Positions 1 to 39,017 of a stretch of 42,441 nucleotides of DNA are shown here, piece by piece. Origin of the DNA: Bdellovibrionales bacterium (GTDB lineage Bacteria; Bdellovibrionota; Bdellovibrionia; Bdellovibrionales; JAGQZY01). Every line of letters begins with the position of its first letter. Positions within the stretch are counted from its first letter, which is position 1. The stretch covers positions 1 through 42,441 of the forward strand of contig JANPLN010000035.1 in the NCBI GenBank assembly GCA_031426555.1. Direction: 5' to 3'. The notes under the pieces are model-generated. The model ran no database searches. It was not told the DNA's origin and worked only from the letters and a program-made list of their open reading frames with translations. A program made the position numbers and the translations under genes.

Positions 1-116
1 TGACCTGCAGTAATGTGCTTTCATGTAAGTGTTGGCAAAATATTTGCTATTCTGGGGATATGCCGCCGTTACGAACAATAACTTACGGAGAATGGTTGGA
101 GCTATATGGCAAATGA
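1..116 (+). CDS. 5'-truncated ORF end, Cys-rich C-terminus (possible radical SAM SPASM/twitch tail)
   Basis: Frame 3 is open from the window edge: TCSNVLSCKCWQNICYSGDMPPLRTITYGEWLELYGK*, TGA at 114-116, overlapping the next ATG (106). Four Cys in 15 residues; family assignment is inference. Confidence 0.55.
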   Translation, partial: TCSNVLSCKCWQNICYSGDMPPLRTITYGEWLELYGK

Positions 117-684: not shown

Positions 685-759
685 GAAGGGGATCGCAGAG
701 TAGCCATTTTTGGTTTTGATTTTAATAGTCTTCAAGACCAGAAAGTCCTATTGTTATGA
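685..759 (+). other. In-frame C-terminal continuation of the 106 oxygenase beyond TGA 682-684
   Basis: Reads EGDRRVAIFGFDFNSLQDQKVLLL*, supplying the conserved 2OG-binding Arg strand; ends with an ATGA overlap on the 756 start. Confidence 0.7.
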
Positions 760-1616
760 TTTCGTGGAACCCTATAGAGTCTCACCTTGGGGCTAAAATT
801 CAAGGAATGTCCTGTCAGCAGGCACTTTCTATAGATTCAAAACATTGGCAAGATTTGCTTTATAAAGTTAATGTAATAGTTATTGATCACATCGATTTAA
901 CTCGCGAAAGTTTTTATCAACTGTCTTTAAAGTTTGGCATTCCCTGGAGTAAAGAATTGCATCACCTGCATGGTGAAACGATAGAAGAAGATATGGTTGT
1001 TAATTGGAGCGATAAATCTGGATTAAAAAAAGTTTGTATACCATGGCATACTGACAACTCTTGGCACCCCACTTGGCGAAATCCGATTCGAATGCTATAC
1101 GGTGTTGCGATTCCTGATCCAAACTCAGGATGTTTGAATTATTTAAATTTAAGTTACGCTTATGAGCATGTATTAGACGACCTCGAAAAAGAAGAAATCA
1201 AAAATTGGCAGGTCCTAGTCCAGGATTATAAAAATAAAAATATTCAATATTGGTACCCTCTCATTCAAAAAAACCCAGTTTCTGGCAAAAAAAGCATTTT
1301 TATCACAGCAATGGATATAAATTCTCCTGAATTTGGTTTTACTAAGGCTCCGGGGTATCAAAAAGGAAATACTTTTTTGCTCAAGATAAAAGATCAGCAT
1401 GGTAACGAGAGGCCGCTGTCTTTCTTGGTTGAATATGCAAAAAAATGCATGAAAATTAAAGGTTGTTTTTTTGAGCAAAAGTGGAAGCCTAAAATGCTAC
1501 AAATTATTTCAAATTTGGACATGGTTCATTGCAGGACCACACTTTCTGATATTGAAGATGAGAGAATGATATGGCGCAAAACCATAGCCCATTACTTTCA
1601 GGGTGCCGACGCATGA
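756..1616 (+). CDS. TauD/TfdA family 2OG-Fe(II) dioxygenase
   Basis: N-terminal LGAKIQG, PWHTDNSW (HxD), PLIQKNPVSGKKSIF, KWKPKMLQIISNLDMVHCR (distal His/Arg) and RMIWRKTI. Confidence 0.85.
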   Translation: MISWNPIESHLGAKIQGMSCQQALSIDSKHWQDLLYKVNVIVIDHIDLTRESFYQLSLKFGIPWSKELHHLHGETIEEDMVVNWSDKSGLKKVCIPWHTDNSWHPTWRNPIRMLYGVAIPDPNSGCLNYLNLSYAYEHVLDDLEKEEIKNWQVLVQDYKNKNIQYWYPLIQKNPVSGKKSIFITAMDINSPEFGFTKAPGYQKGNTFLLKIKDQHGNERPLSFLVEYAKKCMKIKGCFFEQKWKPKMLQIISNLDMVHCRTTLSDIEDERMIWRKTIAHYFQGADA

Positions 1617-2077
1617 CCTTAACTCATTTGTCGATGCAGCATAAAATTGATACCGAATGGCATGAGAAGTATTTTTTAAGTCCTGCATACAGGTTAACAG
1701 CAATAACTGAATCTTATCTCCCATCGGCCTACTATGAACACTTCAGTTCAGTTTATGAAAGCATGTCATCCCATCTTTTGTTTCGTGCTAAATTTTCAAA
1801 CAAGGTGGAAAAAAAGGTGAATGTGCTGACGGTTTGGGATAGTGCCCAGGCATATGAGGAATTCTACGTGCGCATCAATGGGGCGAACTGGTTCGAGCAA
1901 CTTCAGAAAACGAAAATCAACTTTTCTTTTAGGAAAGATGTAATCGATGAGTTTAAGCTAAGCCAGATTATATCAGAGTGTTGGAATCAAGATCGTATAA
2001 TTTTTCAAGACGTCGCGGCTAAATTTCAGACTCCGAATATGAAAATTGGCGATCCATTTAAGAAAAAAATGGAATAA
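1613..2077 (+). CDS. Hypothetical protein, possible ABM/dimeric alpha-beta barrel fold
   Basis: ATG 1613 overlaps upstream TGA (ATGA); LTVWDSAQAYEEF resembles the ABM-type W-x-S motif. Confidence 0.55.
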   Translation: MTLTHLSMQHKIDTEWHEKYFLSPAYRLTAITESYLPSAYYEHFSSVYESMSSHLLFRAKFSNKVEKKVNVLTVWDSAQAYEEFYVRINGANWFEQLQKTKINFSFRKDVIDEFKLSQIISECWNQDRIIFQDVAAKFQTPNMKIGDPFKKKME

Positions 2078-2079
2078 TA

Positions 2080-2775
2080 ATGCCCGTTCATAAATTAAAT
2101 ATACCAGTTGAGATTAAGCCATTTGATTACTCATCCATCCAGATGGCTGGATATGGTCGAAATACAATTAATGGTGTTGCTTTCACTAGTAGTGACGGCG
2201 GTGCGGCGACCGGGTTTAATTATAGTTTTGGGCTCATCCGCAACGTTGAGGGTAAAATGTGGTTTGATACAAATATGATATTAAAGCATCACATCGAATC
2301 ACCGTACTTTCACGTGGTTCCAACAGATTATTATAAATACATACTTCCAACATTTGGTCGTCTCCACGAAATTGGAATAAAATTTTTCAGAGTAAGGCTT
2401 AGTTTGTTGAAGGCAGGGGCCATAATTCCTCCACATAGAGATAGCACGTCAGAAGCTGACTATTGTGTAAAAATACATATTCCAATACAAACAAATGAAC
2501 ATTGTCGTTTTGTTTTTGGCGAGAAATCTTATTATTTAGAAGAAAATGGTTTTTATTTGGCTGATGTGGCACAAATGCATTCATTCGAAAATCGGGGTAC
2601 CGAAGATCGGTATCACATCATTGGTGATTGTATCGTTACCAACCCTGATCTACCTTTGTATTGCCGAGATCAGGAGGGAACTGTGCGGTTTTACGAAGAA
2701 TGGCAACGAAGACTCTTGAAGAAAGATAATTCTGTTAGGTTTTTTGCGCCATTTCAATACCGTGTCTCATACTGA
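2080..2775 (+). CDS. Aspartyl/asparaginyl beta-hydroxylase-like 2OG-Fe(II) oxygenase
   Basis: FRVRLSLLKAGAIIPPHRD (HxD), KIHIPIQTN, MHSFENRGTEDRYHIIGD. Confidence 0.85.
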   Translation: MPVHKLNIPVEIKPFDYSSIQMAGYGRNTINGVAFTSSDGGAATGFNYSFGLIRNVEGKMWFDTNMILKHHIESPYFHVVPTDYYKYILPTFGRLHEIGIKFFRVRLSLLKAGAIIPPHRDSTSEADYCVKIHIPIQTNEHCRFVFGEKSYYLEENGFYLADVAQMHSFENRGTEDRYHIIGDCIVTNPDLPLYCRDQEGTVRFYEEWQRRLLKKDNSVRFFAPFQYRVSY

Positions 2776-2865
2776 GATTTTAGATTCACTCGACCAAGGT
2801 GTTACGTTTAAATTATTCTAAAGAATTAAGAAGACAAAAAAAAGGACGCAAGCTATAATCTAGGA

Positions 2866-3324
2866 ATGTATTTGTCGAGTCGAAGAAAGATGATTGCTTC
2901 TGGCCTTTTACTCACGGCCACCTCAATGTTTACCTTCTCAAAAAAGAAGGGTTTACTTTCTTTTTTAACGTCTCATCTCGCTCCAAGCGATGAAACTGTT
3001 TCAGTTCGACAAGTGGTAGTCATTAAATCTAACGAAGGCAATTTTTCTGATGCAAATCACTTAAAAAACGCTTGGAATAACTTTGTTAATCAGTGCAACC
3101 TGTCTTTTTCTGATCTTTGTACCTGGCGTGAAAGTGGGAGTTTTTCGATGGAAAAAAGAACCCTGCTGGACTCAAAAACTCTTCAAACTGTTCGCGTTTG
3201 GAAATCCAGAAAAGATTTTGATAATTGGTTGATAAGCGAGCAGAGGAATTCGATGAAAACTCTATTGCAAAACAATTCAAAATTTTTTCTTGTTCAAGAT
3301 TCCTTCGATATAATTCAGTCTTAA
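2866..3324 (+). CDS. Hypothetical exported protein, Tat-like signal, ABM-like C-terminus
   Basis: SRRKMI plus hydrophobic stretch; VRVWKSRKDFDNW. Confidence 0.55.
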   Translation: MYLSSRRKMIASGLLLTATSMFTFSKKKGLLSFLTSHLAPSDETVSVRQVVVIKSNEGNFSDANHLKNAWNNFVNQCNLSFSDLCTWRESGSFSMEKRTLLDSKTLQTVRVWKSRKDFDNWLISEQRNSMKTLLQNNSKFFLVQDSFDIIQS

Positions 3325-4313
3325 TTAAGAAACGTGCGAGTGTAATTTTTTAGAATCGAGTAAGGCATTAGCATATCTGGGTTGCTGATTCTTCTAGGTT
3401 CAGCAAGAGAATTTTCTACAATGTATTTTAATCCGTCATTGCCATTGTTAAAATGAATTAACTTCGAGTAACTCTTTAGTTCTGCCAAATACTTTTTTTC
3501 CTGGGTTACCAAATATAAGCCATGAGTTGCAAGCGCTTTCTGGCTGAGGTTGGCTGCCAACTCAATAGCTTTTTGCAGATTTAGCTGGGCTACGTCTTTC
3601 CTTTTGTTAGTATATTCAAAAAGTGCAGCAATTATATAATCGATATAAATTTTTGGTTTTAAAATCGGTGCAGCTTTCAAAGAATCAACGGTTTCTAAAT
3701 ATCCAATAACTGAGGGGTCAGTACTTTTTGATATCTGATAAGCTAGATTTTCATTAGGTAATATTTTAATACATGTTAAATAGGCGAGATGCTCTTGTGG
3801 TGAAGCTACCAGAACCAAGGGTTTTTTCAAAACTTCTTTGCATGAATTTTCCATATCCTTTAAAGATGTGCTTAGGGAAGAGGCGCCACTCAAAAGTACG
3901 CGGTAAAGCAGTTCGGTCTCTTTAACTACAGTCCTCCACCTATAAAAAATTGCTGTGGGCGACATATAATACGATTGTACGTTAAGGAGTTGAGTTACGC
4001 AATCGAGGCTGCATTTGCGAGGAAATTGTTTTTGTAGGTACGAAAAAAGAAACGTTTCGACCGGTTTAAATGATTCAATCGTGGAAGGATCTTGTTTATA
4101 CTGTTGCAACAGAAATTCACAAAGAATTCCAAAGTTTTCTGAATTAATATCTTTTGTATTTGCAGAAACTTTTGCATCAACCATCGCAAGTGCGATATCT
4201 GTGCGCTTGGCTTTTATCGCTCTCGCGACAACCATAGTAAATCCCTTTTCTTGCGCAAATGCGAGATTACCGTTTGTTATAAAAATTAAAAATGTGATTA
4301 TTTTATAAATCAT
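3321..4313 (-). CDS. Hypothetical secreted, mostly helical protein
   Basis: 330-aa ORF with signal peptide (..LAFA|QE); converges on the 2866 gene with a 4-bp overlap. Confidence 0.6.
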   Translation of the reverse strand: MIYKIITFLIFITNGNLAFAQEKGFTMVVARAIKAKRTDIALAMVDAKVSANTKDINSENFGILCEFLLQQYKQDPSTIESFKPVETFLFSYLQKQFPRKCSLDCVTQLLNVQSYYMSPTAIFYRWRTVVKETELLYRVLLSGASSLSTSLKDMENSCKEVLKKPLVLVASPQEHLAYLTCIKILPNENLAYQISKSTDPSVIGYLETVDSLKAAPILKPKIYIDYIIAALFEYTNKRKDVAQLNLQKAIELAANLSQKALATHGLYLVTQEKKYLAELKSYSKLIHFNNGNDGLKYIVENSLAEPRRISNPDMLMPYSILKNYTRTFLN

Positions 4314-4873
4314 TTGCGTGTTAGTTTAACTAACTATAATTCGGAAAACAATTCATAAAAGAAGTCTTCTTCAGATTGCTAGAATATTTGTTTTTATGAC
4401 CTAAGGTTCATGTTTTCAATGCATAAAAATATTTTCTCTAAAACTTGGTAAAGAGGAATGGTCAGTGTTTCGATGATTTTTCAAAGCTAAATTGCAAATC
4501 TGAAGGTGCTAGTCCGAAAAGTTTAAGTACTGCACAGGTACGGTCTTCTTCAACCCAGACAGGAAAAAACGAAGTTTTGTTTTGCTGCCCCGCATGCATT
4601 TACACACCTATCCAAATTATTTATGTCCCAATAAGAACCAATGGTTTGATTTGCTATGCCAACTATTAGTTTTAAGAGGCACGACTTTAGTTTCGGTGCA
4701 CCCAAGTGAGGATACTAATGAAATTCAGCAGATGGATAGTCTAACCACAGAACGGGTGTGGGAGTTTTAGGTGTTATTTTTTATATTGAACTGTCGTTTT
4801 TTGTTACATCCATGAAAAAAAGTCTACCAAAAAATGTCAAATCGGAAGGCCTTGCAAATTAACAGGTAGGGAA

Positions 4874-4890
4874 TTGGCATATGAACTGCA
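4874..4890 (+). promoter_or_regulatory. Putative sigma-54 promoter for the S8 protease
   Basis: TTGGCATATGAACTGCA = GG-N10-GC, about 47 nt before ATG 4937. Confidence 0.5.
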
Positions 4891-4936
4891 TATCCAATCA
4901 CGTAACTTTATTCACAAAGATAACAAAGAGGAGCTT

Positions 4937-6139
4937 ATGCGACGTTTATTTTTTTTCATCGCTTGTTTTTTTGCAATATCATCCATTGTTAATGCGGAAG
5001 ATCAATTGGACGCTGCATGTAGATCTTCTGATCCTGTCCTTGTTTATGATAATTTTCCTATTACCGATCCCGAGAAAATGAAGTTGTTAATGATGTTGCC
5101 GTCTCCGGTCGTCGATGTCAGCGGTGATAGCATTCCTGATATTTTTCATGGAGAGTTGGTTGAAAAATTAGTGCAGTTGAGTGGTTATAAAACCGAACGT
5201 TTCATTGTTTCTGGTGAATCAAGTCTTCCTGAGATTGCGGAGAATCTAGAGATCTTAGTTAAAAAATTAGAGACTGGTGAAGTGCGATATTCGAGAATTA
5301 ATTTCTCTCAAGAAACCCCTTTGAAAATTTCCTCTTTTAAAGAAGATTTATTTCCAAATGATCCCCAAATACCGGAAATCACAGTAGCTAATCTTCCGAA
5401 ATATAGAACTACGATTCTTGAAAAGATTATGAGTGATAGACCCGATTTTAAATTGCAGGAAACCATAGGCTTGTTAAAGCGTTTGCAAAAATTAGGTGTA
5501 CCTTTGGTCGTAGCGGGTGGAAATTTTGGACCAAATTATGTTAACGTGTTTTCATTGTTGCCCGGTGTAATTTCAGTGGGCTCTTTGAATCTTGACGGTA
5601 GTAAGAGAGCAGCCTCCGCTGATAATCCATTTGTTACGGTTTGGCGCAAAGGAGTTTTTGTGTCACGAGCTTCAGTCGGAGGAGTAGATATCGATGGAGA
5701 TCGAATCACCGATTTCAGCAGCACAATCTTTTCAAGCGGGCCATTGATTCCCACTTTATTCGAGGGCAAACAAATCAAAGATGTTGTCAGTGAAGTGCCT
5801 TCAGATTTGGTAGAATATGCTAATAAAACTCTTGTTAATAGCAAACATGTAGTACCAAATGCAGTTTGGAATATTATGCCGACGGGCTTGTATCGAGTGG
5901 GCGACTTAGTGAATCTGGGAACTATTACACCTGGCACACGAAAGTTATGGAAAAGCTCCGGAAAATATATTTACAAGGACAGAGAGAATGAAGGCTTTCC
6001 ATTTTTCTTTGTTGATGACGGTAAATACATCCGCTTCGATCCTCTGGGCAACGGAGCTCATTCGCAACGAAGTGTCCTCGCGGGGACAAGTTATGCGGCT
6101 CCAACGATTTGCCTAAAGGGTGCCGTGTTTAACAAATAG
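4937..6139 (+). CDS. Secreted S8 (subtilisin-like) serine peptidase
   Basis: SD GAGGAG before ATG 4937; signal peptide; VYDN (Asp), FHGELV (His), VVAGGN (oxyanion Asn), ISVGS, AGTSYAAP (Ser). Confidence 0.8.
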   Translation: MRRLFFFIACFFAISSIVNAEDQLDAACRSSDPVLVYDNFPITDPEKMKLLMMLPSPVVDVSGDSIPDIFHGELVEKLVQLSGYKTERFIVSGESSLPEIAENLEILVKKLETGEVRYSRINFSQETPLKISSFKEDLFPNDPQIPEITVANLPKYRTTILEKIMSDRPDFKLQETIGLLKRLQKLGVPLVVAGGNFGPNYVNVFSLLPGVISVGSLNLDGSKRAASADNPFVTVWRKGVFVSRASVGGVDIDGDRITDFSSTIFSSGPLIPTLFEGKQIKDVVSEVPSDLVEYANKTLVNSKHVVPNAVWNIMPTGLYRVGDLVNLGTITPGTRKLWKSSGKYIYKDRENEGFPFFFVDDGKYIRFDPLGNGAHSQRSVLAGTSYAAPTICLKGAVFNK

Positions 6140-20766: not shown

Positions 20767-21930
20767 CTATTGCACCGATTCGGTGAGCAACTTTAATATT
20801 TTTGCCGAGCCTTCGCGGGCCTTTGGAGTGCCAGAATTTACTAGCACGGTGATCACGATTTCGCGCGCAGGTGCCAACACCATGTGCGAGGTAAACAGAG
20901 AATCCAGGGACGACGACGTGAGAGTTCGTCCACCAGCCCACACGCGATCGTGCACAAGAAAGTGCGCATGGGTCATTTTGGGATCTAAACTTGGCCCAAA
21001 AAGTTTAGCAAAAGTTTCTTCCTGAAGAAATTGCGACTCGCGGTAAAGGCCCATATTAATTTCTTTTAACAGCTTGGCTAAATCTCCAGACGAACAACTT
21101 AATGATTCAGCTGGAGCGATGGCGGCTGGAACATCCAGCTTCTTTTCGGCAATGAGTTTAAAATTGCTCAGCGTATGACCGAGCGGATGATCAACGGCCT
21201 GGCTTTTTGGATTTGTTGCCAAACCGAAACCACATTGAGTCAGACCCATGTCAAAAAATATTTTATTCTTAACAAGCTCCTCCCATTGAAAATTTGTGTA
21301 TTTTTCTAAAATCCAGCCGAGCACCACATGATTGGTGGAATTGATATCAGTTTTGGAATTCGGTGTGAATTCTGGATTGTACGACAGCGCTGATTGGATG
21401 ATCAGTTCGCGGCCACGTCTTGCGGAATATTTGTCCAATGTCGCCATCACTTTTAACTTATCCAGTCCCACAAGTCCGCTTCTTTGGGCCATCAACATTT
21501 CAACGGTCACTGTGCGGAGTTGCGGGTTGACCGTAAAATCTTTTCCGACCAAGTCAGCGAGCGTTGAGTTCCAGCTGACAACTTTTTGGTCGATCAACTG
21601 CGCCATTAAAAGTGACGTCAGCGTTTTGGAAATGTGTCCCAAGTAATAACGATCGGTTTCAGCGATCGGGGTGGGGGCTCCAACGGCCCTAACGCCCAAG
21701 AATTTTTGATAGGCAATTTCGCCGCGCTCGTGAATTTGTACATGCACGGCCGGAAGATTAAACTTTGTGGCGATGTCTTCGATTTTTTTATCGAGGTCGA
21801 GATTCTTTTCGATCCTTATTTTTTTTAAATTTTCCTGAAGTGCCTCAGTTGGATTGCTTTGCGGCGCCTGGGATGTGGAGCAGGCAGTAAACATAACGAC
21901 GAGGGCGGAAAAAAATATAAATGTTTTCAT
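20767..21930 (-). CDS. Beta-lactamase-fold (serine hydrolase) lipoprotein with degenerate active site
   Basis: Lipobox FTAC; LGHISKTLT, VTVEMLMAQRSGL, PAESLSCSSGDLAK. Confidence 0.8.
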   Translation of the reverse strand: MKTFIFFSALVVMFTACSTSQAPQSNPTEALQENLKKIRIEKNLDLDKKIEDIATKFNLPAVHVQIHERGEIAYQKFLGVRAVGAPTPIAETDRYYLGHISKTLTSLLMAQLIDQKVVSWNSTLADLVGKDFTVNPQLRTVTVEMLMAQRSGLVGLDKLKVMATLDKYSARRGRELIIQSALSYNPEFTPNSKTDINSTNHVVLGWILEKYTNFQWEELVKNKIFFDMGLTQCGFGLATNPKSQAVDHPLGHTLSNFKLIAEKKLDVPAAIAPAESLSCSSGDLAKLLKEINMGLYRESQFLQEETFAKLFGPSLDPKMTHAHFLVHDRVWAGGRTLTSSSLDSLFTSHMVLAPAREIVITVLVNSGTPKAREGSAKILKLLTESVQ

Positions 21931-21989
21931 GGTATAAGTATAACGTGGACGGATCGCAAGTTCAAGATCCGTCCAGGAGCCCAGTACAG

Positions 21990-22295
21990 TTAAGCTGCGA
22001 CGGGCGTCTTTTTGGTGGTTGTGGAGAGAATGCCTCTTTGCAAAAACCACGTGGAGCAGTCTTGCCAAAATTTATCGCGCAATTTCTCCTCGGCAGGGCC
22101 AAAACGCATTTTTGGGTAGTCACTTTTTTCGATATGACCAATAAACCCTTGCTCGTTGCTATTTTTAACAACCTTCATTAAAAGTTGAAAGTGCACTTCG
22201 GTGAAAGTCTTTTGATCAACCAACATCTGTCGAAGCCCTTTCTCTGGCGTCTGATGTAAAAATTGATACAATCCTGCGTAATCATACTGATTCAT
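21990..22295 (-). CDS. Conserved hypothetical protein
   Basis: SD AGGAGA before ATG 22295; FliA-type promoter directly upstream. Confidence 0.7.
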   Translation of the reverse strand: MNQYDYAGLYQFLHQTPEKGLRQMLVDQKTFTEVHFQLLMKVVKNSNEQGFIGHIEKSDYPKMRFGPAEEKLRDKFWQDCSTWFLQRGILSTTTKKTPVAA

Positions 22296-29475: not shown

Positions 29476-29516
29476 TGTAACAAACACCCTCCCTCTCCCT
29501 CTAACTCCATGTTACA
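29476..29516. promoter_or_regulatory. Possible ECF-sigma promoter or operator in the divergent intergenic region
   Basis: TGTAAC-N17-CTCTAA toward the YHS gene; TGTAACA (29476) and TGTTACA (29510) form an inverted pair. Confidence 0.35.
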
Positions 29517-29542
29517 AAACAGCATTGTCAGGAGACGCCGAC

Positions 29543-30010
29543 ATGAATAAGCTGATTGCTATTTTTTTATGCACCATGGCCATCTTAATTAAGGCACCCA
29601 TCGCATGGGCAGCGACCCCATCGAATGTTGACGCCTATGGAGTCATTCTACAGGGGTACGACGCCGTTTCGTATTTCAAATCTTCCCAACAGCAAAAGGG
29701 TGACCCTAAAATACAAACAAATTTTGCAGGTTCGATTTATCTGTTTGCCACTGCTGCCAATAAAGAGGAATTTTTGAAAGCACCTAAGAAATACGCGCCG
29801 CAGTTTGGCGGGTGGTGTGCCTATGCCGTGGCGGATTCAAAATCCAAAGTAGAGGTGGACCCTCAGAGTTTTTTAATTCAAGATGGGCGGCTTTTGCTTT
29901 TTTACAATGGTGTTTGGGCGAACACGCGAAAAAAATGGTTGAACAATTCGCAAAACTTTTTAAAAACTGCAGACGCCAATTGGCCACAAGTTGAAAACAA
30001 GGAACCTTAA
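29543..30010 (+). CDS. Periplasmic YHS domain (seleno)protein family member, Cys form
   Basis: Signal peptide; GYDAVSYF, YLFATAANKEEF..PKKYAPQFGGWCAYA, VDP..IQDGRLLL, ADANW. Confidence 0.9.
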   Translation: MNKLIAIFLCTMAILIKAPIAWAATPSNVDAYGVILQGYDAVSYFKSSQQQKGDPKIQTNFAGSIYLFATAANKEEFLKAPKKYAPQFGGWCAYAVADSKSKVEVDPQSFLIQDGRLLLFYNGVWANTRKKWLNNSQNFLKTADANWPQVENKEP

Positions 30011-30011
30011 A

Positions 30012-30410
30012 ATGAAATCAAAAGTGCTTATACTTTTACGAATTGTAGCCGCCGCTATTCTAATACAAACGCTTTTTTTTAAGTTTACCGGGGCCGCGGA
30101 ATCAAAATTTATTTTCTCCACCCTGGGTGTTGAACCCTGGGGACGTATTTTTTCAGGCGTCGTCGAATTAGCAGCAGCGATCCTTCTGCTTCTTCCCACA
30201 ACCCAACTCATCGGTGCATTTATTGCTGCGAATGTGATGATCGGAGCCATTTTGAGCCATATTTTCATTCTCGGCATCGATGTGCAGGGTGATGGCGGTT
30301 TGTTATTTTCGCTGGCCTGTTTGGTTTTCATTTGCGGTGTATTAATTTTAGCCCTTCAGCTCGAACGGGTGCGCCACCTGCAAAATCGTCTTTTGGGCAT
30401 GCTAAAATGA
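30012..30410 (+). CDS. DoxX family membrane protein
   Basis: ILIQTLFFKF..ESKFIF..EPWGRI..ELAA..GAILSH..DGGLLF; four TM segments. Confidence 0.88.
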   Translation: MKSKVLILLRIVAAAILIQTLFFKFTGAAESKFIFSTLGVEPWGRIFSGVVELAAAILLLLPTTQLIGAFIAANVMIGAILSHIFILGIDVQGDGGLLFSLACLVFICGVLILALQLERVRHLQNRLLGMLK

Positions 30411-32050
30411 GCGAGGGGACAGGATGCTACCGGCGCGAAATTCTTTTCAGCACGGATTTTTTTGAAGTCGTGGCCATTGAATGGGCCAGCGAATCGGCCA
30501 TTCAGCCGGCCAGTCAAGCAATGTCGCCTCGGCACAACCACGGATGGAGTCAATGTTTGGTTTTGGTGCAAGAGGGAACTTTTGAAGATCAACTCGATCT
30601 GGGGATGAAAAAAGAAATTAGGATTCTAGTTAAAGGGGAGGTTCTTTCAACCCCTATCGGCGCACGCCACGAAATGAAGTGTAAAAGCCAAACGGGAAAA
30701 ACTTTGCATGTTTATACTCCAAAAATTAAAGAACTGACCGAGTTCAATCAGTTTAACTCCGCGCTCGAGGGTCGTTTTAAGTCCGATCTTGCACTGGTTG
30801 GAGCCACAGACATCGACACACTTCGCAATCTTCTCTCTCATTTCAAAGATTTGTCGGTAAGTACTCACTCTCCATACTTTATGAACCAATTGTTTTCTGG
30901 GGTGTTGCCTCAGATGCTGATCGCCGAAGAATTTATCGCACAAACCAAAACGACTCTTGCAACTTATGAGGCCAGTCCCGTTCTATCCGCCATGGAAAGT
31001 GAAGTGGTCAGTACTCTTTGCGAAAAAATCGGGTGGCCAACCGATCCTCGATGTGGAATCAGTGTGCCAGGTGGAAGCGCCGCAAACTTTATGGCCATCC
31101 ACTGCGCCCGGCAAAAACTCTTGCCGCAATCAAAAACAAAAGGTGCTGGGGAAAAAGTCTTAAAGGTTTTTGTTTCTGCAGAAGCCCATTACTCTTTTAA
31201 AAAAGCGTGCGCTGTTTTGGGTATTGGTACTGATAATATGGTGGGTGTGGCAGTGGATAGTCGTGGGCGCATGGATCCGCAGGATTTGGAAGCGCAGATT
31301 TTACAATGTCGAGAGCAGGGAGCGCTGCCGCTTTTGGTTGCCGCCACAGCCGGATCCACTGTCCTTGGCGCCTTTGACGACATTCAATCGTTGTCGGCTA
31401 TTTGCCGAAAGTACGAACTGTGGCTTCACGTTGATGGAGCCTGGGGTGGCCCGGTGATCTTTTCGCAAAAACATCGCCATCTCGTGAAAGGAATTGAGCT
31501 TGCTGACTCATTCACCTTCGACGCCCACAAGTTGATCGGGGCCAGCCTTACCAGTAGTTATTTTCTCACTCAGCATACGGATATTCTTTTAGAATCAAAC
31601 GATGTTTCCGGGGGCGATTACCTTTTTCACTCATCAAACGAAGCCACTCTCGACCGCGGACGACTTTCTTGGCAGTGTGGACGTAAAGGCGAAGCTGCAA
31701 GTTTTTGGACCATCTGGAAGAGTCTCGGAACCGAAGGCATCGGGCAGTTTGTCGATCGACTTGTAGACCTACGCGATGAGTGCATGCAGTGGATACAATC
31801 CCAGGACAGACTGCAAATCGTATCCCAGCCAGAGTATCTAAATCTTTGTGTGCGGGTGCTTCCGCCCAATAAAAAACACGATCCCAATTGGTCTCAACAT
31901 GTCCGCGAAGCGCTGAAGCAAAAAAACCTCGCATTTGTGAATTATTCTGCCAACTCCGATGGAACTTTTCTCCGCTTGATTCTAGCGAATCCGTATTTAA
32001 CGTTTGATCACGTAAAACAAATTTTACAATGGGCTATCGAGGTTGATTGA
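30407..32050 (+). CDS. Cysteine dioxygenase-like cupin fused to a group II PLP decarboxylase (CSAD/GAD-like)
   Basis: ATGA overlap with DoxX. Cupin: YRREIL, W, HNHGWSQC, RHEM, TLHVY. Decarboxylase: HSPYFMNQLFSG, TYEASP, PGGSAAN, AHYS, TAGSTVLGAFD, WLHVDGAWGG, DAHK, QCGRK. Confidence 0.9.
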   Translation: MSEGTGCYRREILFSTDFFEVVAIEWASESAIQPASQAMSPRHNHGWSQCLVLVQEGTFEDQLDLGMKKEIRILVKGEVLSTPIGARHEMKCKSQTGKTLHVYTPKIKELTEFNQFNSALEGRFKSDLALVGATDIDTLRNLLSHFKDLSVSTHSPYFMNQLFSGVLPQMLIAEEFIAQTKTTLATYEASPVLSAMESEVVSTLCEKIGWPTDPRCGISVPGGSAANFMAIHCARQKLLPQSKTKGAGEKVLKVFVSAEAHYSFKKACAVLGIGTDNMVGVAVDSRGRMDPQDLEAQILQCREQGALPLLVAATAGSTVLGAFDDIQSLSAICRKYELWLHVDGAWGGPVIFSQKHRHLVKGIELADSFTFDAHKLIGASLTSSYFLTQHTDILLESNDVSGGDYLFHSSNEATLDRGRLSWQCGRKGEAASFWTIWKSLGTEGIGQFVDRLVDLRDECMQWIQSQDRLQIVSQPEYLNLCVRVLPPNKKHDPNWSQHVREALKQKNLAFVNYSANSDGTFLRLILANPYLTFDHVKQILQWAIEVD

Positions 32051-34182: not shown

Positions 34183-34875
34183 TTACTTCCTTTTACCTTT
34201 ATTCCATTCACAGCCCGCGCTTTTCATAAAGGTGAGGACTTCTCTGGTCGGATCGAACGAGGCAGCTCCGTCGCTGTACTTTTCGTACCTTTTTTGCTGA
34301 GTACTAGGTGCCATAAAAAATTCGTAAGCTTCCAGGTTTCCATGGGTGGCGAGCTGTTGCAATTGCCAGACAACTTTTTCCCAGCGGGCGTTTTTATCGT
34401 CGAGTTTGGGCAAAGCCTTTAAATACAAACGATGAGCATTGGGGTCGTTAATCATGTGGCATTTTCCACTTTTGATAACATCTCCGTGTTCATTGGCCGA
34501 ATATGTCACGGTGACCTCTGACCCTTTTTCGGAAAATCGAAGCCACGTTAAAACGTCATCACTGGTGGAGACGTTTACAGTTCCCCAAACATACTCGGAA
34601 AAGGCATCTATCACTTTGCCAGTTTTCTTTTCGATAATTTTCAGATCGGTGACGCTGTAGGAGGAACCGGTTTTTTTAGAGGAGGCAAATTGCAGTTGAA
34701 TCCCTTTGACGGTGTCGGGTTCGTTCATTGCGGGGATTTCTTCGGGGAGGGGCGCTGCGATTTTTTGCGCTGGCTCGGCGGCGGGCGGAGAAGTCACTAC
34801 CACGGTCTCCGAAGTTTTGAGTGTACAAGCTGTTAAAAAAACGATGAATGCCATGAGGCTAACAATATTTTTCAA
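34183..34875 (-). CDS. Hypothetical lipoprotein (start uncertain)
   Basis: Lipobox LTAC and Pro-rich linker. Confidence 0.6.
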   Translation of the reverse strand: MKNIVSLMAFIVFLTACTLKTSETVVVTSPPAAEPAQKIAAPLPEEIPAMNEPDTVKGIQLQFASSKKTGSSYSVTDLKIIEKKTGKVIDAFSEYVWGTVNVSTSDDVLTWLRFSEKGSEVTVTYSANEHGDVIKSGKCHMINDPNAHRLYLKALPKLDDKNARWEKVVWQLQQLATHGNLEAYEFFMAPSTQQKRYEKYSDGAASFDPTREVLTFMKSAGCEWNKGKRK

Positions 34876-35119
34876 GGTTTCAACGTAATAGGGGCCATAC
34901 CAGCGAGTCAAACTCAAAATTTTTCCTCCCGGGTGTGCTTATTTTAGATTTTTGGATGTGAGGATCTCAGCGATAGCTTTCTCCTTGTCGAGTGCTTTAT
35001 TGTAGTTGCCTCGCTACCTGCAAAACGGCACAAAAACTTACCTTTGGAGCCGTTTTTTGTCTTCTAAAGTAAAACCCGTAGCGAATGGAGAGCTTGGAAC
35101 ACGATAGCGGCAGCCATTT

Positions 35120-35135
35120 AGGCCTGTTTTTTGCT
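35120..35135 (+). promoter_or_regulatory. Possible sigma-54 promoter
   Basis: AGGCCTGTTTTTTGCT = GG-N10-GC just upstream of 35150. Confidence 0.35.
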
Positions 35136-35149
35136 TTGTCTCACAGAGG

Positions 35150-36364
35150 ATGATTAAACTATATGTGCATCTCGCAATTATGATCGCCTTTCTAGCGCCC
35201 TTTACCACAAACGCACAGGGCGTCCGATCTTGCTTTCACATCTTCGAAACGATCCAGACAACAACTTCCTTTGCGGTCGACGAACAGTGGAAGGCTTTTA
35301 GGGCTCCGCACCCCAGTATGGCGGCGGTCAAAAGTCATGTTCTCGCTCTTGGGCACTTTACAACTTACACGGGGATTTTTCGAATCGGCCGACAGGGAGC
35401 CTTAAAATCCCGAGCGCAGCTCAAAAAAGAAGACAGAAGAGCGCGAATCAATTTGGGCGGAAACATCAATTCCTCCTATCTTGCACCAATTGGGGAAAAT
35501 CAAAGATTCATTTATGTCGGCTCAAGTTTACTGGGGCCAACGATTATTTTTTCCAACACTCTTTTAGACCGCAAGGATTACTACTTCAATACCGGTGCTG
35601 ACTATGGAGTTTTTAATTCGCCCAATTCGTACGGCGAACCTTCAGGATTTCGTGGAAGTTGGTCTCTAGATCGTTTGACTGCTCATCGTCTTCCTAAGGA
35701 GGTGGTTTTTGAAAACGAAATTCGTCTTGCAGATTACGCTGCAGCCATAGTCGTGCCGGCCTCCTACCGGCCTATTTTTCAAAGCCTCACTCTTCTTAAC
35801 GGAATCTCATGGAAAAAAATGGGTGTAGAAATAATTTTCGCAGATACACTTCCAGATTCACAAACAGTTCGGCAACTTGTCGAACGCAAGAATGCAAGTG
35901 TGCGCCATGCCCTCAATCCCCATGATGTTCATATCAATATTAGGACAAACTTGGATCTCCATTTACCGACTCTTGAGTCGAAATACGATTATTTGGATAA
36001 CCCACTTCATTGGCCAACAGAGCTCGGTCTGTCTACTCGCAATTACTTTATGACCGAACACAACACGCGCTCCTATGGGACCAAAAATCGTGATGAAGTG
36101 TTAAAATTTTTAGAAGTTCAGCTACGCACTGAAAGTATCAATTGGCACTGGTTTCAATACTACAACATTACTTTCCCACAGACTCAATCAGCCAAGCAAC
36201 TGACTGAGTTGTTAGCCCGCTACGACTTTACCATGGCCGACCTAGAAAAAAGATCAGGTCAGAGAATTCCGAGTATGATGAGAATGGAACTTTCATTTAA
36301 TAAAGGTCAAACAAATTTACCCCCAGAGTACCAGAACTTACGAAGCATCGAATCGTCGGATTAA
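35150..36364 (+). CDS. Secreted protein with DarT/ADP-ribosyltransferase-like N-terminal domain
   Basis: Signal peptide; LGHFTT..IFRIGRQGALKSR, IIFSNTLL, KEVVFENEIRL..AIVV pattern. Confidence 0.55.
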   Translation: MIKLYVHLAIMIAFLAPFTTNAQGVRSCFHIFETIQTTTSFAVDEQWKAFRAPHPSMAAVKSHVLALGHFTTYTGIFRIGRQGALKSRAQLKKEDRRARINLGGNINSSYLAPIGENQRFIYVGSSLLGPTIIFSNTLLDRKDYYFNTGADYGVFNSPNSYGEPSGFRGSWSLDRLTAHRLPKEVVFENEIRLADYAAAIVVPASYRPIFQSLTLLNGISWKKMGVEIIFADTLPDSQTVRQLVERKNASVRHALNPHDVHINIRTNLDLHLPTLESKYDYLDNPLHWPTELGLSTRNYFMTEHNTRSYGTKNRDEVLKFLEVQLRTESINWHWFQYYNITFPQTQSAKQLTELLARYDFTMADLEKRSGQRIPSMMRMELSFNKGQTNLPPEYQNLRSIESSD

Positions 36365-36536
36365 CGTTCGAAAGACAGTCCCAATTTATCTATTTGCAGC
36401 CTTTTGTTTGATTACCATGGAACAAGTCCCAAGAAATTTTCTACAGAACACAGTTGGTGCCGTTCCAAGCACTTTCTTCGTATAGCTTAAAGCTATTTTG
36501 ATGAGCTCTAAACTTTTCATCAAAAGGAGATGTAAA

Positions 36537-36863
36537 ATGAAAACATTTAGGACGTTAGATTTAGCTATAGAATTTTATGACAAAGTAGAACACCTCAAAA
36601 TAGCAGGACATCTTCGCGATCAGGTAATTAGAGCCGCAGCATCGATCCCGTTGAACCTCTCTGAAGGAAATGCGAAACCTTCGCCAAAAGAGAAGCGCAG
36701 GTTTTACCAAACGGCGTATGCATCGCTAAAAGAATGTCAGACAATTTTTAAAATGGCAAAAGTTGAGGATGTAGAAATACTGAAAACTGCAGATCATTTG
36801 GGCGCGAGCATCTATAAGTTAGTTCAATCAAAAATCACAGAAATCGGCAACAGTCTACCGTAG
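36537..36863 (+). CDS. Four helix bundle protein (23S rRNA IVP / bAvd-like family)
   Basis: LRDQVIRAAASIPLNLSEG..EKRRFYQTAYASLKEC; SD AAGGAG. Confidence 0.92.
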   Translation: MKTFRTLDLAIEFYDKVEHLKIAGHLRDQVIRAAASIPLNLSEGNAKPSPKEKRRFYQTAYASLKECQTIFKMAKVEDVEILKTADHLGASIYKLVQSKITEIGNSLP

Positions 36864-36868
36864 CCTTT

Positions 36869-36933
36869 CCTGTATTCCGAATACAGGTCACAGTATTCAG
36901 AATACTGTTTTAAATTTCGCGCAAGCGAAATTT
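36869..36933. repeat. Three tandem hairpins
   Basis: CCTGTATTC-C-GAATACAGG, ACAGTATTC-A-GAATACTGT, AAATTTCGC-GCAA-GCGAAATTT. Confidence 0.75.
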
Positions 36934-37024
36934 GGTGCCCCGGGCCGGACTTGAACCGGCACGCCCGTTTACACGAAGCTCAGGATTTTAAATCCTGTGC
37001 GTCTACCGATTTCGCCACCGGGGC
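36933..37024 (-). tRNA. tRNA-Leu (TAA)
   Basis: Reverse complement GCCCCGGTGGCGAAATCGGTAGACGCACAGGATTTAAAATCCTG...GCCGGTTCAAGTCCGGCCCGGGGCACCA; long variable arm, encoded CCA. Confidence 0.97.
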
Positions 37025-37136
37025 AGTGAAGAAAGTGAACGAAAACTAATGTCATTTTTAATGCGATTAGGCAAGCGCTGAGACTCAGCGCCATGGATTT
37101 TGCGTGCCGTAAAAATAGGCAGCTAACTAAGCAGCC

Positions 37137-38963
37137 CTAGGGCTGCTCGACAACCACATTCGGCTGATATGTCTTACGACAGGTATTGATCAGATGCGAT
37201 GAAATCTGAATGCTGTACGGTGAGAGTGGGGCATTGGTGTTTAAACAGTAGTAAATGTCCACAAGGGAGTTGGGTCCACCGGCATCCGAGATGTGCACTG
37301 TGTTCGTAGTGCCGCTGTAGCTGTGGCCTCGTTGCACGCCATCCACTTTCGCTTGAATCGTATTTGCATCGACGTTGAGATATTTCAAAATAAAGTCATA
37401 ACGGAGATCAAGGCGAGTCGAAGTGTAGCCACCAATGGACGACAGACCCGTTGGAATTGCCGTTTTTGTGATATCAATGATCGCTCCACCAGCTAAGTTG
37501 GTGATCATGTTATATCCAAGGCCCAAACCGTTTTCTAAACCAACAGGGATGCGCGACTTATCGTTGTAAATGATCGAAGACACATACAGCGGCATGGACT
37601 GACGCACCACTTGCAATCGTTGCAACACAGACTGAGCTGTAACGCCCGCGCAATAGCGGGAGCTAAAAGACGCCTCGAGACCGTCGGCATCTGCAACAGA
37701 AGGATCTAAGTAACAAATGTCGTTTTCATCCGAGATAAAAATCACAGCAAGAGCGGCGTCTGGGCGGAAAAAGTTTTTCTCACCGGCGATCGTCGAAAGC
37801 GTTTGAATGGACTCGTAACGGCTTGGCGACGTGGCGTAGGGGCGAACGGCCTCGTATGCACTCAGTAAGCCAGCTTCTCCACCATCGGCGTCGAAATCCG
37901 TTGGAAGGTTGCGCAAGGCTTGGCCGGGAATGGCGTTACCAGCATCATCCCACGCGCGAATGTCGTAGTTGTTTTGACGATACAAAAGTTTACGGCGCAA
38001 CCAGTATTGAACTTGCGACGTGCTGTAATCTTTTGTGCTAATTACGAATTTTTCTTTTGGATCTTTGTAATCAGATTTATACAGTCGACCCGTAAAGTAA
38101 CTTGAAGGTCCGTGTGCAAGCGTGACAGCAAACTGCACGTCGGTGCCGGAAGGCATTTTGCCAATGTAGTTTGTAATGCCATTAGCGAGTTGTTCGCGCT
38201 CAGTGTCCATAGATGACGAGGAATCTGTAATAATCCAAACATCAAGCTTACGTGTAATAATAGATCCAGGCTGTTGATAGCGCTCGGTGATGCAGTAACG
38301 GTTGTCGTGATCGCATCCAGGTTCGAAAGGTGTGCAGCTGCCAGTTGTACTACCTGTGGTTGTGCCACCAGTCGCTGAGCCACCAGTAGTTGAGCTACCA
38401 GACATCGTGCCTGAAGACGTTGTTCCGCTAGTTGTAGAGCCTCCAGAAGTTGTGCCGGAAGAGGTTGAGCCGCCAGAAGTGGTTCCTGAAGATGTGGAGC
38501 CGCCAGTTGTTGTGCCTGAAGATGTGGATCCACCAGAGGTTGTGCCACTCGTCGTCGTGCCACCAGTGGTTGTCCCGCCAGTCGTCGTTCCACCCGTGGA
38601 GCAGCATCCTGTTGTGGTTCCGATGCTTGTCGACCCACCATTTGTCGACCCACCAGTCGTCGTGCCGCCCATCGTAGATCCACCGCTCGTCGAACCACCG
38701 TTAGTAGTTCCACCAGAGGTCATTCCACCGCTGTTAGAGCCACCGCTTGCTGTTCCACCAGTGGGCCCACCAGGTCCGCCCGACGTGCCACTAGAGGTTG
38801 AGCCACCGGAGCCAGAACCGCCGCCTGAAGAACTGCTTCCGTTGCCTTGGTCCACTTCGCTCGTTTGCAATGTTTCGAAAGATTTTTTCGAACACGCCTG
38901 CGTGCTGAGCATCAACAGCCCAAGAACCGCGGTAAAGAAAAGTTTGTTTGAAAGAGTCTTCAT
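37137..38963 (-). CDS. Lipoprotein with Gly/Ser/Thr pentapeptide-repeat stalk and vWA-like domain
   Basis: Lipobox TQAC; (S/T)T(S/T)(G/S)G repeats; LDVWIITDSSSSM (MIDAS-like), FFRPDAALAVIFISDEND. Confidence 0.8.
   Translation of the reverse strand: MKTLSNKLFFTAVLGLLMLSTQACSKKSFETLQTSEVDQGNGSSSSGGGSGSGGSTSSGTSGGPGGPTGGTASGGSNSGGMTSGGTTNGGSTSGGSTMGGTTTGGSTNGGSTSIGTTTGCCSTGGTTTGGTTTGGTTTSGTTSGGSTSSGTTTGGSTSSGTTSGGSTSSGTTSGGSTTSGTTSSGTMSGSSTTGGSATGGTTTGSTTGSCTPFEPGCDHDNRYCITERYQQPGSIITRKLDVWIITDSSSSMDTEREQLANGITNYIGKMPSGTDVQFAVTLAHGPSSYFTGRLYKSDYKDPKEKFVISTKDYSTSQVQYWLRRKLLYRQNNYDIRAWDDAGNAIPGQALRNLPTDFDADGGEAGLLSAYEAVRPYATSPSRYESIQTLSTIAGEKNFFRPDAALAVIFISDENDICYLDPSVADADGLEASFSSRYCAGVTAQSVLQRLQVVRQSMPLYVSSIIYNDKSRIPVGLENGLGLGYNMITNLAGGAIIDITKTAIPTGLSSIGGYTSTRLDLRYDFILKYLNVDANTIQAKVDGVQRGHSYSGTTNTVHISDAGGPNSLVDIYYCLNTNAPLSPYSIQISSHLINTCRKTYQPNVVVEQP
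38340..38845 (-). repeat. Degenerate 15-bp coding tandem repeat
   Basis: Encodes about 30 TTTGG/STSSG-type pentapeptides. Confidence 0.85.
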
Positions 38964-39017
38964 ATTCCACCCCGTATGTAACAATAGTATAGCGCTAAAC
39001 TTATTTCCTCTGCACCA

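Follow-up and report, generated by a model that had tools for sequence, protein, structure and literature searches.

Could a single bacterial gene hold both of the enzymes by which animals turn cysteine into hypotaurine and, if so, what would the product be for? This question is raised by a 547-aa reading frame in a 42,441-nucleotide stretch of Bdellovibrionales DNA (contig JANPLN010000035.1, hereafter the window), which an earlier note had read as cysteine dioxygenase (CDO) fused to cysteine sulfinate decarboxylase (CSAD). The implication would be that some predatory bacteria, relatives of Bdellovibrio, have joined the two animal enzymes in one gene.

One gene encodes both domains

The 547-aa frame is a genuine fusion (Table 1). 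It translates without a stop, as the earlier note had described; the codon that the note had picked out for the PLP lysine does encode it (K375), and the division into a cupin followed by a group II decarboxylase is borne out by residues, profile matches and split homologues. Near-full-length homologues number at least 119 (494-560 aa, query coverage 90-100%, identity 54-67%; from the best 120 of 991 matches), and both domains lie in one frame at 33 of 50 GTDB loci, with Bdellovibrio sp. qaytius (L008) providing a complete chromosome. Could an assembly frameshift have merged two genes, as the note had allowed? Relatives with split forms do exist: at 7 of the 50 loci the cupin is encoded on its own, six times immediately upstream of the decarboxylase gene and once with OlsB in between. 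Yet the homologues of the same length, at least 119, come from several sequence sources, and the fused proteins form one supported clade in a quick tree of the decarboxylases; together with the complete chromosome and the fused GTDB loci, these lengths refute a frameshift at the junction, whose probability we put close to nil. Sequencing data, which the note had proposed as a check of the junction, agree: a single contig from run X1 covers the whole region and shows no differences, although this DNA may itself come from X1, so that the agreement is not independent.

Table 1. The fusion gene, its parts and its neighbours, with coordinates in the window
Feature	Position	Strand	Basis or remark
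DedA/VTT membrane domain + ATP-grasp ligase fusion, 525 aa	27838..29415	-	PF09335; points away from the YHS-DoxX-fusion run
Candidate ECF-type promoter (TGTAAC, spacer, CTC element)	29476..29505	+	ahead of YHS
YHS-domain protein, N-terminal hydrophobic segment (probable signal peptide)	29543..30010	+	NF041384 119 bits, cut-off 70
132-aa membrane protein of the DoxX family with four hydrophobic segments	30012..30410	+	PF13564 above cut-off
Fusion of a CDO-type cupin with a group II PLP decarboxylase	30407..32050	+	547 aa, stop-free translation
Trimmed CDO-type cupin, residues 8-106	30428..30724	+	aligned by profile with the CDOs of B. subtilis and human
Cupin residues and CDO equivalents: Y8/R10 = Tyr58/Arg60; W26 = Trp77; C50 = Cys93
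Cupin residues and CDO equivalents: H43/H45/H88 = His86/88/140; T99/H101/Y103 = Ser153/His155/Tyr157
Residues 107-148, variable linker plus two helices	30725..30850	+	AlphaFold2 model, identity profile
CSAD/GADL1/GAD-like decarboxylase, residues 149-547	30851..32047	+	alignment to mouse CSAD, conservation, Foldseek
Decarboxylase residues and CSAD equivalents: F163 = Phe94; H261 = His191; K375 = Lys305; Y405 = Tyr335; R523 = Arg466
PLP lysine codon K375, AAG	31529..31531	+	Lys in 120/120 aligned rows

The start codon shares bases with the stop codon of DoxX, the gene upstream (ATGA). We prefer this ATG, where homologues also start, despite an in-frame TTG at 30332 that would extend the frame to 572 aa. 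The protein contains no hydrophobic segments; its AlphaFold2 model (pLDDT 92.8, pTM 0.91) gives only a hint that cupin and decarboxylase are held in a fixed arrangement, and mean identity is 0.28 in the linker, 0.54 in the cupin and 0.62 in the decarboxylase. No longer fusion carrying the cupin (959-2735 aa) scored, which is weak evidence, and a scan for sigma-70 promoters and terminators gave nothing usable (5 sites of each kind, where shuffles gave 3.0 and 4.3).

The earlier note knew of no characterised natural fusion of this kind, and full-text searches, which covered few subscription papers, likewise yielded no natural single-chain cysteine-to-hypotaurine enzyme; an engineered carp CDO-CSD fusion is said to have been described by Honjoh in 2010. 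Compared with the animal CDO1 and CSAD taurine pathway (or GADL1), both folds are the same, but here they form a single polypeptide whose gene is clustered with that of a ligase in bacteria. Bacterial CDO and CSAD-like genes have been described as separate members of one operon (bioRxiv 10.1101/2024.03.02.583032, a second-hand account of Agnello et al. 2013, available in part). Those operons likewise bring the two functions together in a bacterium, whereas here there is one gene, linked with ligase and lipid genes, neither of which is mentioned in the available part of that account. Such a split CDO-CSAD layout occurs in one of our genomes (G357), with a Cys93-type CDO.

Resemblance to CDO and to CSAD

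Searched against 177,635 PDB sequences, the family profile of the cupin (A2) returned Bacillus subtilis CDO first (E 1.2e-9), followed by human CDO as the next sequence type (E 4.2e-4). Arg60, Trp77, Cys93 and the Ser-His-Tyr motif are named as CDO features in the available portion of PMC8050391, and their equivalents are almost fixed across the family: R10 in 113 of the 115 rows that span it (Lys in two), W26 in 117/117 and C50 in 114/117 (Gly in two, Ser in one), the fourth cupin position thus lacking Glu. The metal ligands H43 and H45 are present in 117/117 rows and H88 in 120/120, whilst the motif reads Thr-His-Tyr, with Thr in place of the CDO Ser (Thr in 119 rows, Ser in one; His and Tyr in 120/120 each). 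R10, H43, H45, C50, H88, H101 and Y103 are all kept together in 111 of the 115 rows spanning R10. The cupin therefore shares with animal CDO1 the three His, Arg60, Cys93, His155 and Tyr157, and differs in having Thr for Ser153 and in lacking the N-terminal extension ahead of the barrel; only 5-16 residues precede the conserved Arg in fused cupins (9 here), against 29-57 in split and ligase-fused forms. The B. subtilis enzyme (3eqe, 4qm8, 4qm9), an Arg-type thiol dioxygenase and the top Foldseek as well as the top profile match, has the same Arg, three His and His-Tyr pair, but stands alone, with an N-terminus some 50 residues longer and Gly at the position of C50. Cys93 is not a hallmark of the fusion, as split bacterial CDOs carry it too.

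Might the trimmed cupin be something else, perhaps a metal- or cysteine-sensing regulatory domain, or an oxidiser of another thiol? The domain search proposed in the earlier note could be taken in that sense, as it succeeded for the decarboxylase (PF00282 above cut-off) and not for the cupin: Pfam CDO_I finds no match in it, and the sole match, to Cupin_2 at residues 38-96, does not reach that model's cut-off. In a scan of 11 fused cupins, six match CDO_I at E up to 0.1 and one is above the CDO_I cut-off, which 7/7 separate cupins from split loci pass. The short N-terminus, a Tyr58 equivalent kept in only 61/115 rows (Y8) and fold searches of low specificity point the same way. The cupin model (pLDDT 88.4) has all strands and finds cupin folds with both Foldseek and VIA-align, but Foldseek, with CDO at ranks 1-4, places KdgF within a factor of five, and VIA-align puts CDO 11th (Z 12.9 vs 14.5, rmsd 2.2, 100 aligned). 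CDO Glu104 aligns with residue 61, which is Asp in this fusion and Asn in most homologues. Against such a reading stand the near-invariant Arg60, Cys93, Trp77 and His-Tyr pair, and the presence of Arg, not Gln, at R10, which argues against a 3-mercaptopropionate enzyme; we regard it as very unlikely. The cupin carries CDO-like residues although formal CDO_I membership fails, and to judge from these residues it would work like a CDO.

The decarboxylase is closest to CSAD, as far as sequence comparison can tell. PF00282 spans residues 152-483 (E 8.5e-69, 232.5 bits vs a cut-off of 27), the best PDB matches are CSAD, GADL1 and GAD (mouse CSAD 6zek at E 2.1e-82), and the residues shared with CSAD and GADL1 (His191, Lys305, Tyr335, Arg466) are each present in 120/120 rows. 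So is F163 in the NQLF loop, the equivalent of Phe94 in CSAD, a residue which the available part of bioRxiv 10.1101/2020.09.25.308866 reports to block Glu and favour cysteine sulfinate, with Ser in GAD and Tyr in GADL1 at this position. We reject the glutamate decarboxylase label on the Bdellovibrio sp. qaytius homologue, which has Phe where GAD has Ser. Agnello (2013) is said to have given CSAD a three-residue motif, F-x19-S-x-Y. The fusion instead has F-T-A (F163 120/120, T183 119/120, A185 120/120), the places of CSAD residues 114 and 116 being taken by Thr and Ala, and F-S-Y is kept in L046, L047, L048, L050 and G357. The CDO and CSAD-like identity claimed in the earlier note is thus upheld by residues, profiles and split homologues, though not by the full motif. 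Ala185 does not mark CDO-linked enzymes: the third-position Ala recurs in 18 of 20 stand-alone decarboxylases without CDO or ligase within ~5 kb, seven of them exactly F-T-A, so that sequence alone leaves the substrate unfixed.

Perhaps, then, the main substrate of the decarboxylase is a different acidic amino acid (aspartate, yielding beta-alanine, or cysteate), and the cupin performs a separate or accessory step. CSAD and GADL1 do accept Asp, according to the same partly available preprint, and CDO or panD was present in 0/5 genomes with stand-alone Ala-type decarboxylases, all five from one family, a hint that the subfamily is able to use aspartate. We nevertheless think this reading distinctly improbable: panD is present in 6/6 fusion genomes tested, so beta-alanine supply is already covered; four genomes (G017, G173, G260, G284) hold a stand-alone paralogue as well as the cluster copy; and the pairing with CDO is repeated in three gene layouts. 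The NCBIfam equivalog cut-offs are missed both for the aspartate decarboxylase PanP (153.7/606 bits) and for the diaminobutyrate decarboxylase RhbB (176.5/900). Alternatively, the order could be reversed, the decarboxylase turning cysteine into cysteamine and the cupin oxidising this to hypotaurine. The end product would be identical and the changed third motif residue could alter the pocket, but the Arg that binds the cysteine carboxylate is retained almost throughout, the NQLF acid-binding loop is kept, and CDO is reported to be ~10,000-fold worse on cysteamine (PMC8050391, in the portion available); such a route seems exceedingly unlikely. Residues and context together make it likely that the fusion would convert cysteine to cysteine sulfinate and then to hypotaurine.

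A ligase locus shared across genomes

The DedA-ATP-grasp ligase and the amino-lipid genes around the fusion were absent from the earlier note. Across 24 well-flanked fused loci, each with at least 4.5 kb upstream, the ligase is present in 23, DoxX in 22, YHS in 21 and an ECF sigma factor in 17, with OlsB in 8, MsrB in 6, OlsA in 5, and MsrA and arginase in 3 each. OlsB-like and OlsA-like genes and arginase thus recur in the cluster, as for OlsB/OlsA and OlsF aminolipid synthesis, but there are no Ols genes in this fusion's own cluster, nor in most fused loci; in its genome, other contigs carry arginase, OlsA-like genes and two OlsB-like genes. The OlsB-like and OlsA-like proteins of the clusters have the OlsB and OlsA models as best NCBIfam matches, well below the cut-offs (OlsB-like 92-106 bits vs 320-350), which leaves their amino acid unfixed. 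The YHS gene has a further in-frame TTG at 29525.

Is the ligase tied to the two enzymes? Among 301 Bdellovibrionota genomes, 11 have an intact fused cupin and 22 the ligase, and in 16 of these 22 CDO plus decarboxylase lie inside the ligase locus. CDO is itself fused to the ligase in three genomes (L054-L056), between arginase and decarboxylase, and a quick tree (FastTree) places the CDO-linked ligases in three distinct regions. The two fused proteins found without a nearby ligase (L031, G186) have both lost His metal ligands. At L038, unfused and within the cluster, a separate CDO-like gene is present; the 165-aa frame between ligase and decarboxylase at L062 has no significant cupin-profile match (probability 0.1%). 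The ligase family extends further, to 47/201 Bacteroidota and 14/401 Pseudomonadota genomes, and OlsB/OlsF-like genes adjoin it in 5/20 and 7/14 loci, respectively. No CDO or decarboxylase was found within ~8 kb of the ligase in these 20 and 14 loci, and CDO_I occurs anywhere in 2/40 ligase-bearing Bacteroidota genomes vs 1/40 without ligase; these counts rule out that the whole family depends on its own taurine synthesis.

A possible role in aminolipid synthesis

What, then, would the hypotaurine be for? We infer the lipid steps from gene neighbourhood and gene fusions. The fusion would be soluble and catalyse two steps, the cupin, with Fe(II) held by three His, forming cysteine sulfinate from L-cysteine and O2 and the PLP domain releasing hypotaurine from it; co-expression and stoichiometry would be fixed by the fusion, whereas the channelling raised as a possibility in the earlier note is neither required nor supported here. 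Hypotaurine, or taurine after oxidation, would be the amine most likely used by the DedA-anchored ATP-grasp ligase, which would form an amide with the free carboxyl of an ornithine-type aminolipid; OlsB/OlsA would make this lipid, with arginase supplying ornithine, and DedA would move it. In this reading, the fusion would provide a membrane lipid with a group of the taurine type. The two-step route in the earlier note stands as far as the CDO/CSAD-like assignment goes, but given the ligase and amino-lipid genes the pathway probably ends beyond free hypotaurine. For the whole chain, from hypotaurine made by the fusion to its attachment by the ligase to an ornithine-type lipid, our support is tentative, at slightly under an even chance.

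Free hypotaurine or taurine could itself be the end product, an oxidant scavenger in an ECF-controlled methionine-sulfoxide-repair regulon in which the ligase is a co-regulated neighbour. This would fit the cluster's MsrA/MsrB and ECF sigma genes equally well, and in this genome YHS, msrA-ECF and msrB are all preceded, at a distance of 49-54 nt, by a TGTAAC-spacer-CTC pattern; [TG]GTAAC occurs on the + strand in 8 of 24 YHS-upstream windows vs 4.5% of background windows. A second TGTAAC, on the minus strand (29516-29511) and without the CTC element, faces the ligase gene. But the motif was picked after viewing this DNA and shows no enrichment across the genome (12 matches vs 11-22 in shuffles), which makes the promoter candidate a lead only, and a free antioxidant leaves unexplained both the CDO-ligase fusion in three genomes and the decay of the cupin at ligase-less loci. 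We consider this unlikely. Neither xsc, for taurine catabolism, nor an FMO-like hypotaurine oxidase gave a match in the genome, in searches whose long queries can miss matches.

Less probable again is that the ligase joins hypotaurine to a soluble acceptor, such as an amino acid, a peptide or a protein carboxyl. Its closest solved relatives by profile (A3), 7ta5 and cyanophycin synthetase, act on peptides, and most fused loci lack Ols genes; the DedA/VTT domain fused to or beside the ligase, and the OlsB/OlsA/OlsF-like genes that adjoin it in three phyla, favour a lipid.

If a lipid is indeed the acceptor, how far could the idea be taken? It is possible, though doubtful, that the fusion produces the head group for a kind of sulfur-aminolipid pathway not described before. 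Hypotaurine would then be made under an ECF stress sigma common to periplasmic MsrA/MsrB, and the DedA-ATP-grasp protein would join it to ornithine lipid and flip the lipid outward, where the sulfinate could act as a membrane-bound oxidant sink, becoming tauro-ornithine lipid. The ligase family could be a general head-group extender with swapped amine-supplying modules: CDO and decarboxylase here, a haem-oxygenase-like oxidase and methyltransferase at a paralogue, DinB and NRDE in other phyla. It could also include the orphan transferase that, with ATP, adds taurine in the making of cerilipin, the tauro-ornithine lipid of Gluconobacter cerinus, in which taurine is joined to the ornithine-lipid carboxyl at the expense of ATP. 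That transfer, reported since the 1970s, has no known gene according to the available text of a 2026 review (PMC12971839). It is the reaction expected of an ATP-grasp ligase whose gene lies next to OlsB/OlsA and to genes for taurine synthesis, although the amine here may be hypotaurine and the pathway is proposed from genes. The larger value of these loci perhaps lies in this context: they name an amine for a widespread DedA-ATP-grasp ligase family without a known amine substrate, so that the missing transfer gene becomes directly testable in E. coli. Gluconobacter is absent among the named matches of an acetic-acid-bacterial ligase, a minority of the best 120 of 1377; those named are Komagataeibacter, Novacetimonas and Gluconacetobacter.

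A cupin-decarboxylase fusion and its spread

The earlier note read one ORF as a cysteine dioxygenase (CDO)-type cupin fused to a group II PLP decarboxylase resembling cysteine sulfinate decarboxylase (CSAD), and this single-polypeptide architecture is borne out: within the best 120 of 991 matches, 119 homologues share it, with 54-67% identity across 90-100% of the query length, and cupin and decarboxylase lie in a single frame in 33 of 50 GTDB loci. These homologues and one-frame loci, one of the latter on a complete chromosome, rule out an artefact. In a Pfam scan, PF00282 matched residues 152-483, Cupin_2 matched residues 38-96 weakly, and CDO_I matched no part of the window's fusion.

Named homologue records come from Bdellovibrionota nearly throughout, plus one Myxococcales bin. 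Within the phylum, 301 evenly sampled genomes include 11 with an intact fused cupin, from seven families; it was not found in the two other genomes of the window's genus. So uneven a distribution suggests a mobile or frequently lost cassette. All fused decarboxylases form one clade in a quick tree (SH-aLRT 100), which also contains six unfused rows, one that breaks off where its contig ends and five that lack the cupin.

The fusion is real, conserved and a new form of a known pathway. In a few marine microbes, CDO and CSAD are reported as separate genes of one operon (bioRxiv 10.1101/2024.03.02.583032), whereas the window's CDO- and CSAD-like domains form one chain; a full-text literature search, with subscription papers mostly outside it, found no description of a natural CDO-CSAD fusion or of such a cluster.

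Catalytic residues of the two domains

A profile of 32 fused cupins retrieved Bacillus subtilis CDO as first PDB match (E 1.2e-9) and human CDO as next (E 4.2e-4). Thiol dioxygenases split into Arg-type and Gln-type, and features described for CDO are Arg60, Trp77, a Ser-His-Tyr motif and a Cys93-Tyr157 pair (PMC8050391). In the profile alignment, R10 and W26 of the fusion match Arg60 and Trp77, H43/H45/H88 match His86/88/140, C50 matches Cys93, and T99/H101/Y103 match Ser153/His155/Tyr157. R10, the three histidines, C50, H101 and Y103 are jointly kept in 111 of the 115 rows whose alignment spans R10, and Tyr58 in 61 of them. Judged by sequence, the cupin is predicted to work like an Arg-type CDO. 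The window's cupin fails the formal CDO family test, and in structure searches with the cupin domain CDO did not stand out among small cupins; the CDO_I cut-off is passed by only 1 of 11 fused cupins, and by 7/7 in the seven loci with a separate cupin gene at the decarboxylase. Fused cupins have 5-16 residues before the arginine, against 29-57 in split forms.

For the decarboxylase, the closest solved structures are CSAD, GADL1 and GAD (E 2e-82 to 3e-74), with bacterial entries far behind. F163 corresponds to Phe94 of CSAD, a residue that reportedly excludes glutamate and has a role in the binding of cysteine sulfinate (bioRxiv 10.1101/2020.09.25.308866). H261, K375, Y405 and R523 (His191, Lys305, Tyr335 and Arg466) are invariant across 120 rows, and the PLP lysine codon was correctly placed by the earlier note at 31529-31531, which encodes K375. 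Work by Agnello in 2013 is said to give the three-residue CSAD motif as F-x19-S-x-Y; the fused family reads F-T-A at these positions. Alanine in third place also occurs in 18 of 20 stand-alone relatives without CDO or ligase nearby, and the cysteine sulfinate assignment rests on the partner more than on the motif. Aspartate decarboxylases may be among the members of the wider subfamily, because panD and CDO are both absent from five stand-alone-decarboxylase genomes, all of one family, and panD is present in 6/6 fusion genomes; stand-alone enzymes may replace panD for beta-alanine synthesis, given its absence from the five genomes tested. Across twenty stand-alone decarboxylases of this subfamily (L127-L146), the first motif residue varies among F, Y, N, W, L and H.

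The ligase cluster and a candidate lipid route

YHS, DoxX and the fusion form a coupled run in the window, the fusion lying last with its ATG overlapped by the DoxX stop. In the 24 of 33 fused loci with at least 4.5 kb upstream (nine short loci excluded), neighbours are the DedA/VTT-ATP-grasp ligase (23), DoxX (22), YHS (21), ECF sigma (17), OlsB-like (8), MsrB (6), OlsA-like (5) and arginase (3). The ligase occurs in 22 of the 301 genomes, with CDO and decarboxylase at its locus in 16, as a CDO-decarboxylase fusion (10), a CDO-ligase fusion between arginase and decarboxylase (3) or all separate (3); the two samples overlap, and related genomes are not independent. The three layouts occupy separate parts of the ligase tree (FastTree). 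Two natural controls agree with this pairing of CDO and ligase cluster. In both cases where a fused protein was found away from the ligase (L031; G186), its cupin no longer has the His ligands; at locus L038 the decarboxylase, unfused yet in the cluster, is accompanied by a separate CDO-like gene.

Probably the fusion makes hypotaurine from cysteine, and the ligase would link hypotaurine or taurine to an ornithine-type aminolipid at its carboxyl group; the whole chain, from cysteine to the ligated lipid, is a more tentative proposal. In Gluconobacter cerinus, taurine transfer to ornithine lipid is described as ATP-dependent, its gene not known (PMC12971839, a 2026 review), and the fusion gives a testable link to this orphan lipid-modifying reaction. 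Among the matches listed, the named ligase bearers are Komagataeibacter, Novacetimonas and Gluconacetobacter, and no tie to G. cerinus was made. The available text of an aminolipid review (PMC11631085) mentions ATP-grasp enzymes only in the title of a reference.

The main rival reading has free hypotaurine scavenging oxidants: MsrA/MsrB and ECF sigma are repeatedly present in the cluster, a TGTAAC-spacer-CTC pattern precedes YHS, msrA-ECF and msrB by ~50 nt in the window's genome, and [TG]GTAAC occurs in 13/24 YHS-upstream windows (either strand), although the motif was picked after inspection of the window and has no genome-wide enrichment. Lipid ligation and scavenging are compatible readings provided that sulfinate is displayed on the lipid.

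Beyond the phylum, the ligase was found in 47/201 Bacteroidota and 14/401 Pseudomonadota genomes. Its neighbourhood was mapped in 20 of these Bacteroidota and in every one of the 14 Pseudomonadota: OlsB/OlsF-like genes adjoin it in 5/20 and 7/14 loci, DinB, NRDE, YHS and DoxX often accompany it, and neither CDO nor decarboxylase lies within ~8 kb (0/20, 0/14); CDO_I occurs anywhere in the genome in 2/40 ligase-bearing (40 of the 47) versus 1/40 ligase-free Bacteroidota. Ligase paralogues in the window's genome and on a Komagataeibacter plasmid neighbour a haem-oxygenase-like (iron redox) enzyme and a methyltransferase, not CDO and decarboxylase. As this paralogous gene nests within the fusion-linked ligase clade (FastTree), a swap of the amine-supplying module is suggested. 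Because partners differ in this way, the family appears to be a membrane amide ligase whose partner modules are interchangeable, CDO plus decarboxylase being the Bdellovibrionota one. In a Planctomycetota bin, an 837-aa hydrolase-ligase fusion directly follows an Orn/DAP/Arg-type decarboxylase, a possible further amine supplier.

Features of the window (plain coordinates) and of other loci (L-numbers; G, genome, G000 being the window's own; C, contig)
Feature	Location	Strand	Remarks
Fused cupin/decarboxylase ORF	30407-32050	+	547 residues, stop-free translation
DedA/VTT-ATP-grasp gene			525 aa; divergent from YHS-DoxX-fusion run
TauD-family gene	756-1616		within low-GC stretch
Asp/Asn beta-hydroxylase-like gene	2080-2775		within low-GC stretch
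Beta-lactamase-family serine hydrolase	20767-22068	-	433 aa; PF00144
'23S rRNA IVP' protein	36498-36863		four-helix
ATP-grasp ligase + C-terminal CDO domain fusion	L054:7377-8828; L055:7338-8789; L056:6948-8444		order arginase, ligase-CDO, decarboxylase
Fused proteins, cupin His ligands lost	L031:5974-7641; L149:6940-8676 (G186)		outside cluster
Paralogous DedA-ATP-grasp gene	L066:6892-10418 (G000:C5); L065; L094		L094, Komagataeibacter plasmid
Divergent msrA-ECF-anti-sigma and msrB-DsbD/thioredoxin-like operons	L114:6417-10258 (G000:C54)		back-to-back TGTAAC motifs resembling YHS-upstream one
Hydrolase-ligase fusion	L070:346-4220		Planctomycetota bin
659-aa CDO_I fusion	L001:64-2043 (G000:C22); L072 (G252)	- (L001)	L072, same genus
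551-aa ORF with CDO_I	L148:3555-5210 (G369)		Bacteroidota

Rest of the window and other CDO fusions

The PF00144 serine hydrolase is not linked to the fusion finding. Three long ORFs (244, 404 and 615 aa) at 34183-38984 have no Pfam match. Positions 106-6139, with a GC content of 0.36-0.38 against about 0.46, are possibly an acquired island, which also carries five ORFs without a Pfam match.

Further CDO fusions occur elsewhere. The Bacteroidota ORF passes the CDO_I cut-off, its partner being without assignment. The second CDO_I fusion of the window's genome has an Arg-type, Gly93-type cupin (PF05995 above cut-off), a middle part without assignment and a C-terminal SAM methyltransferase.
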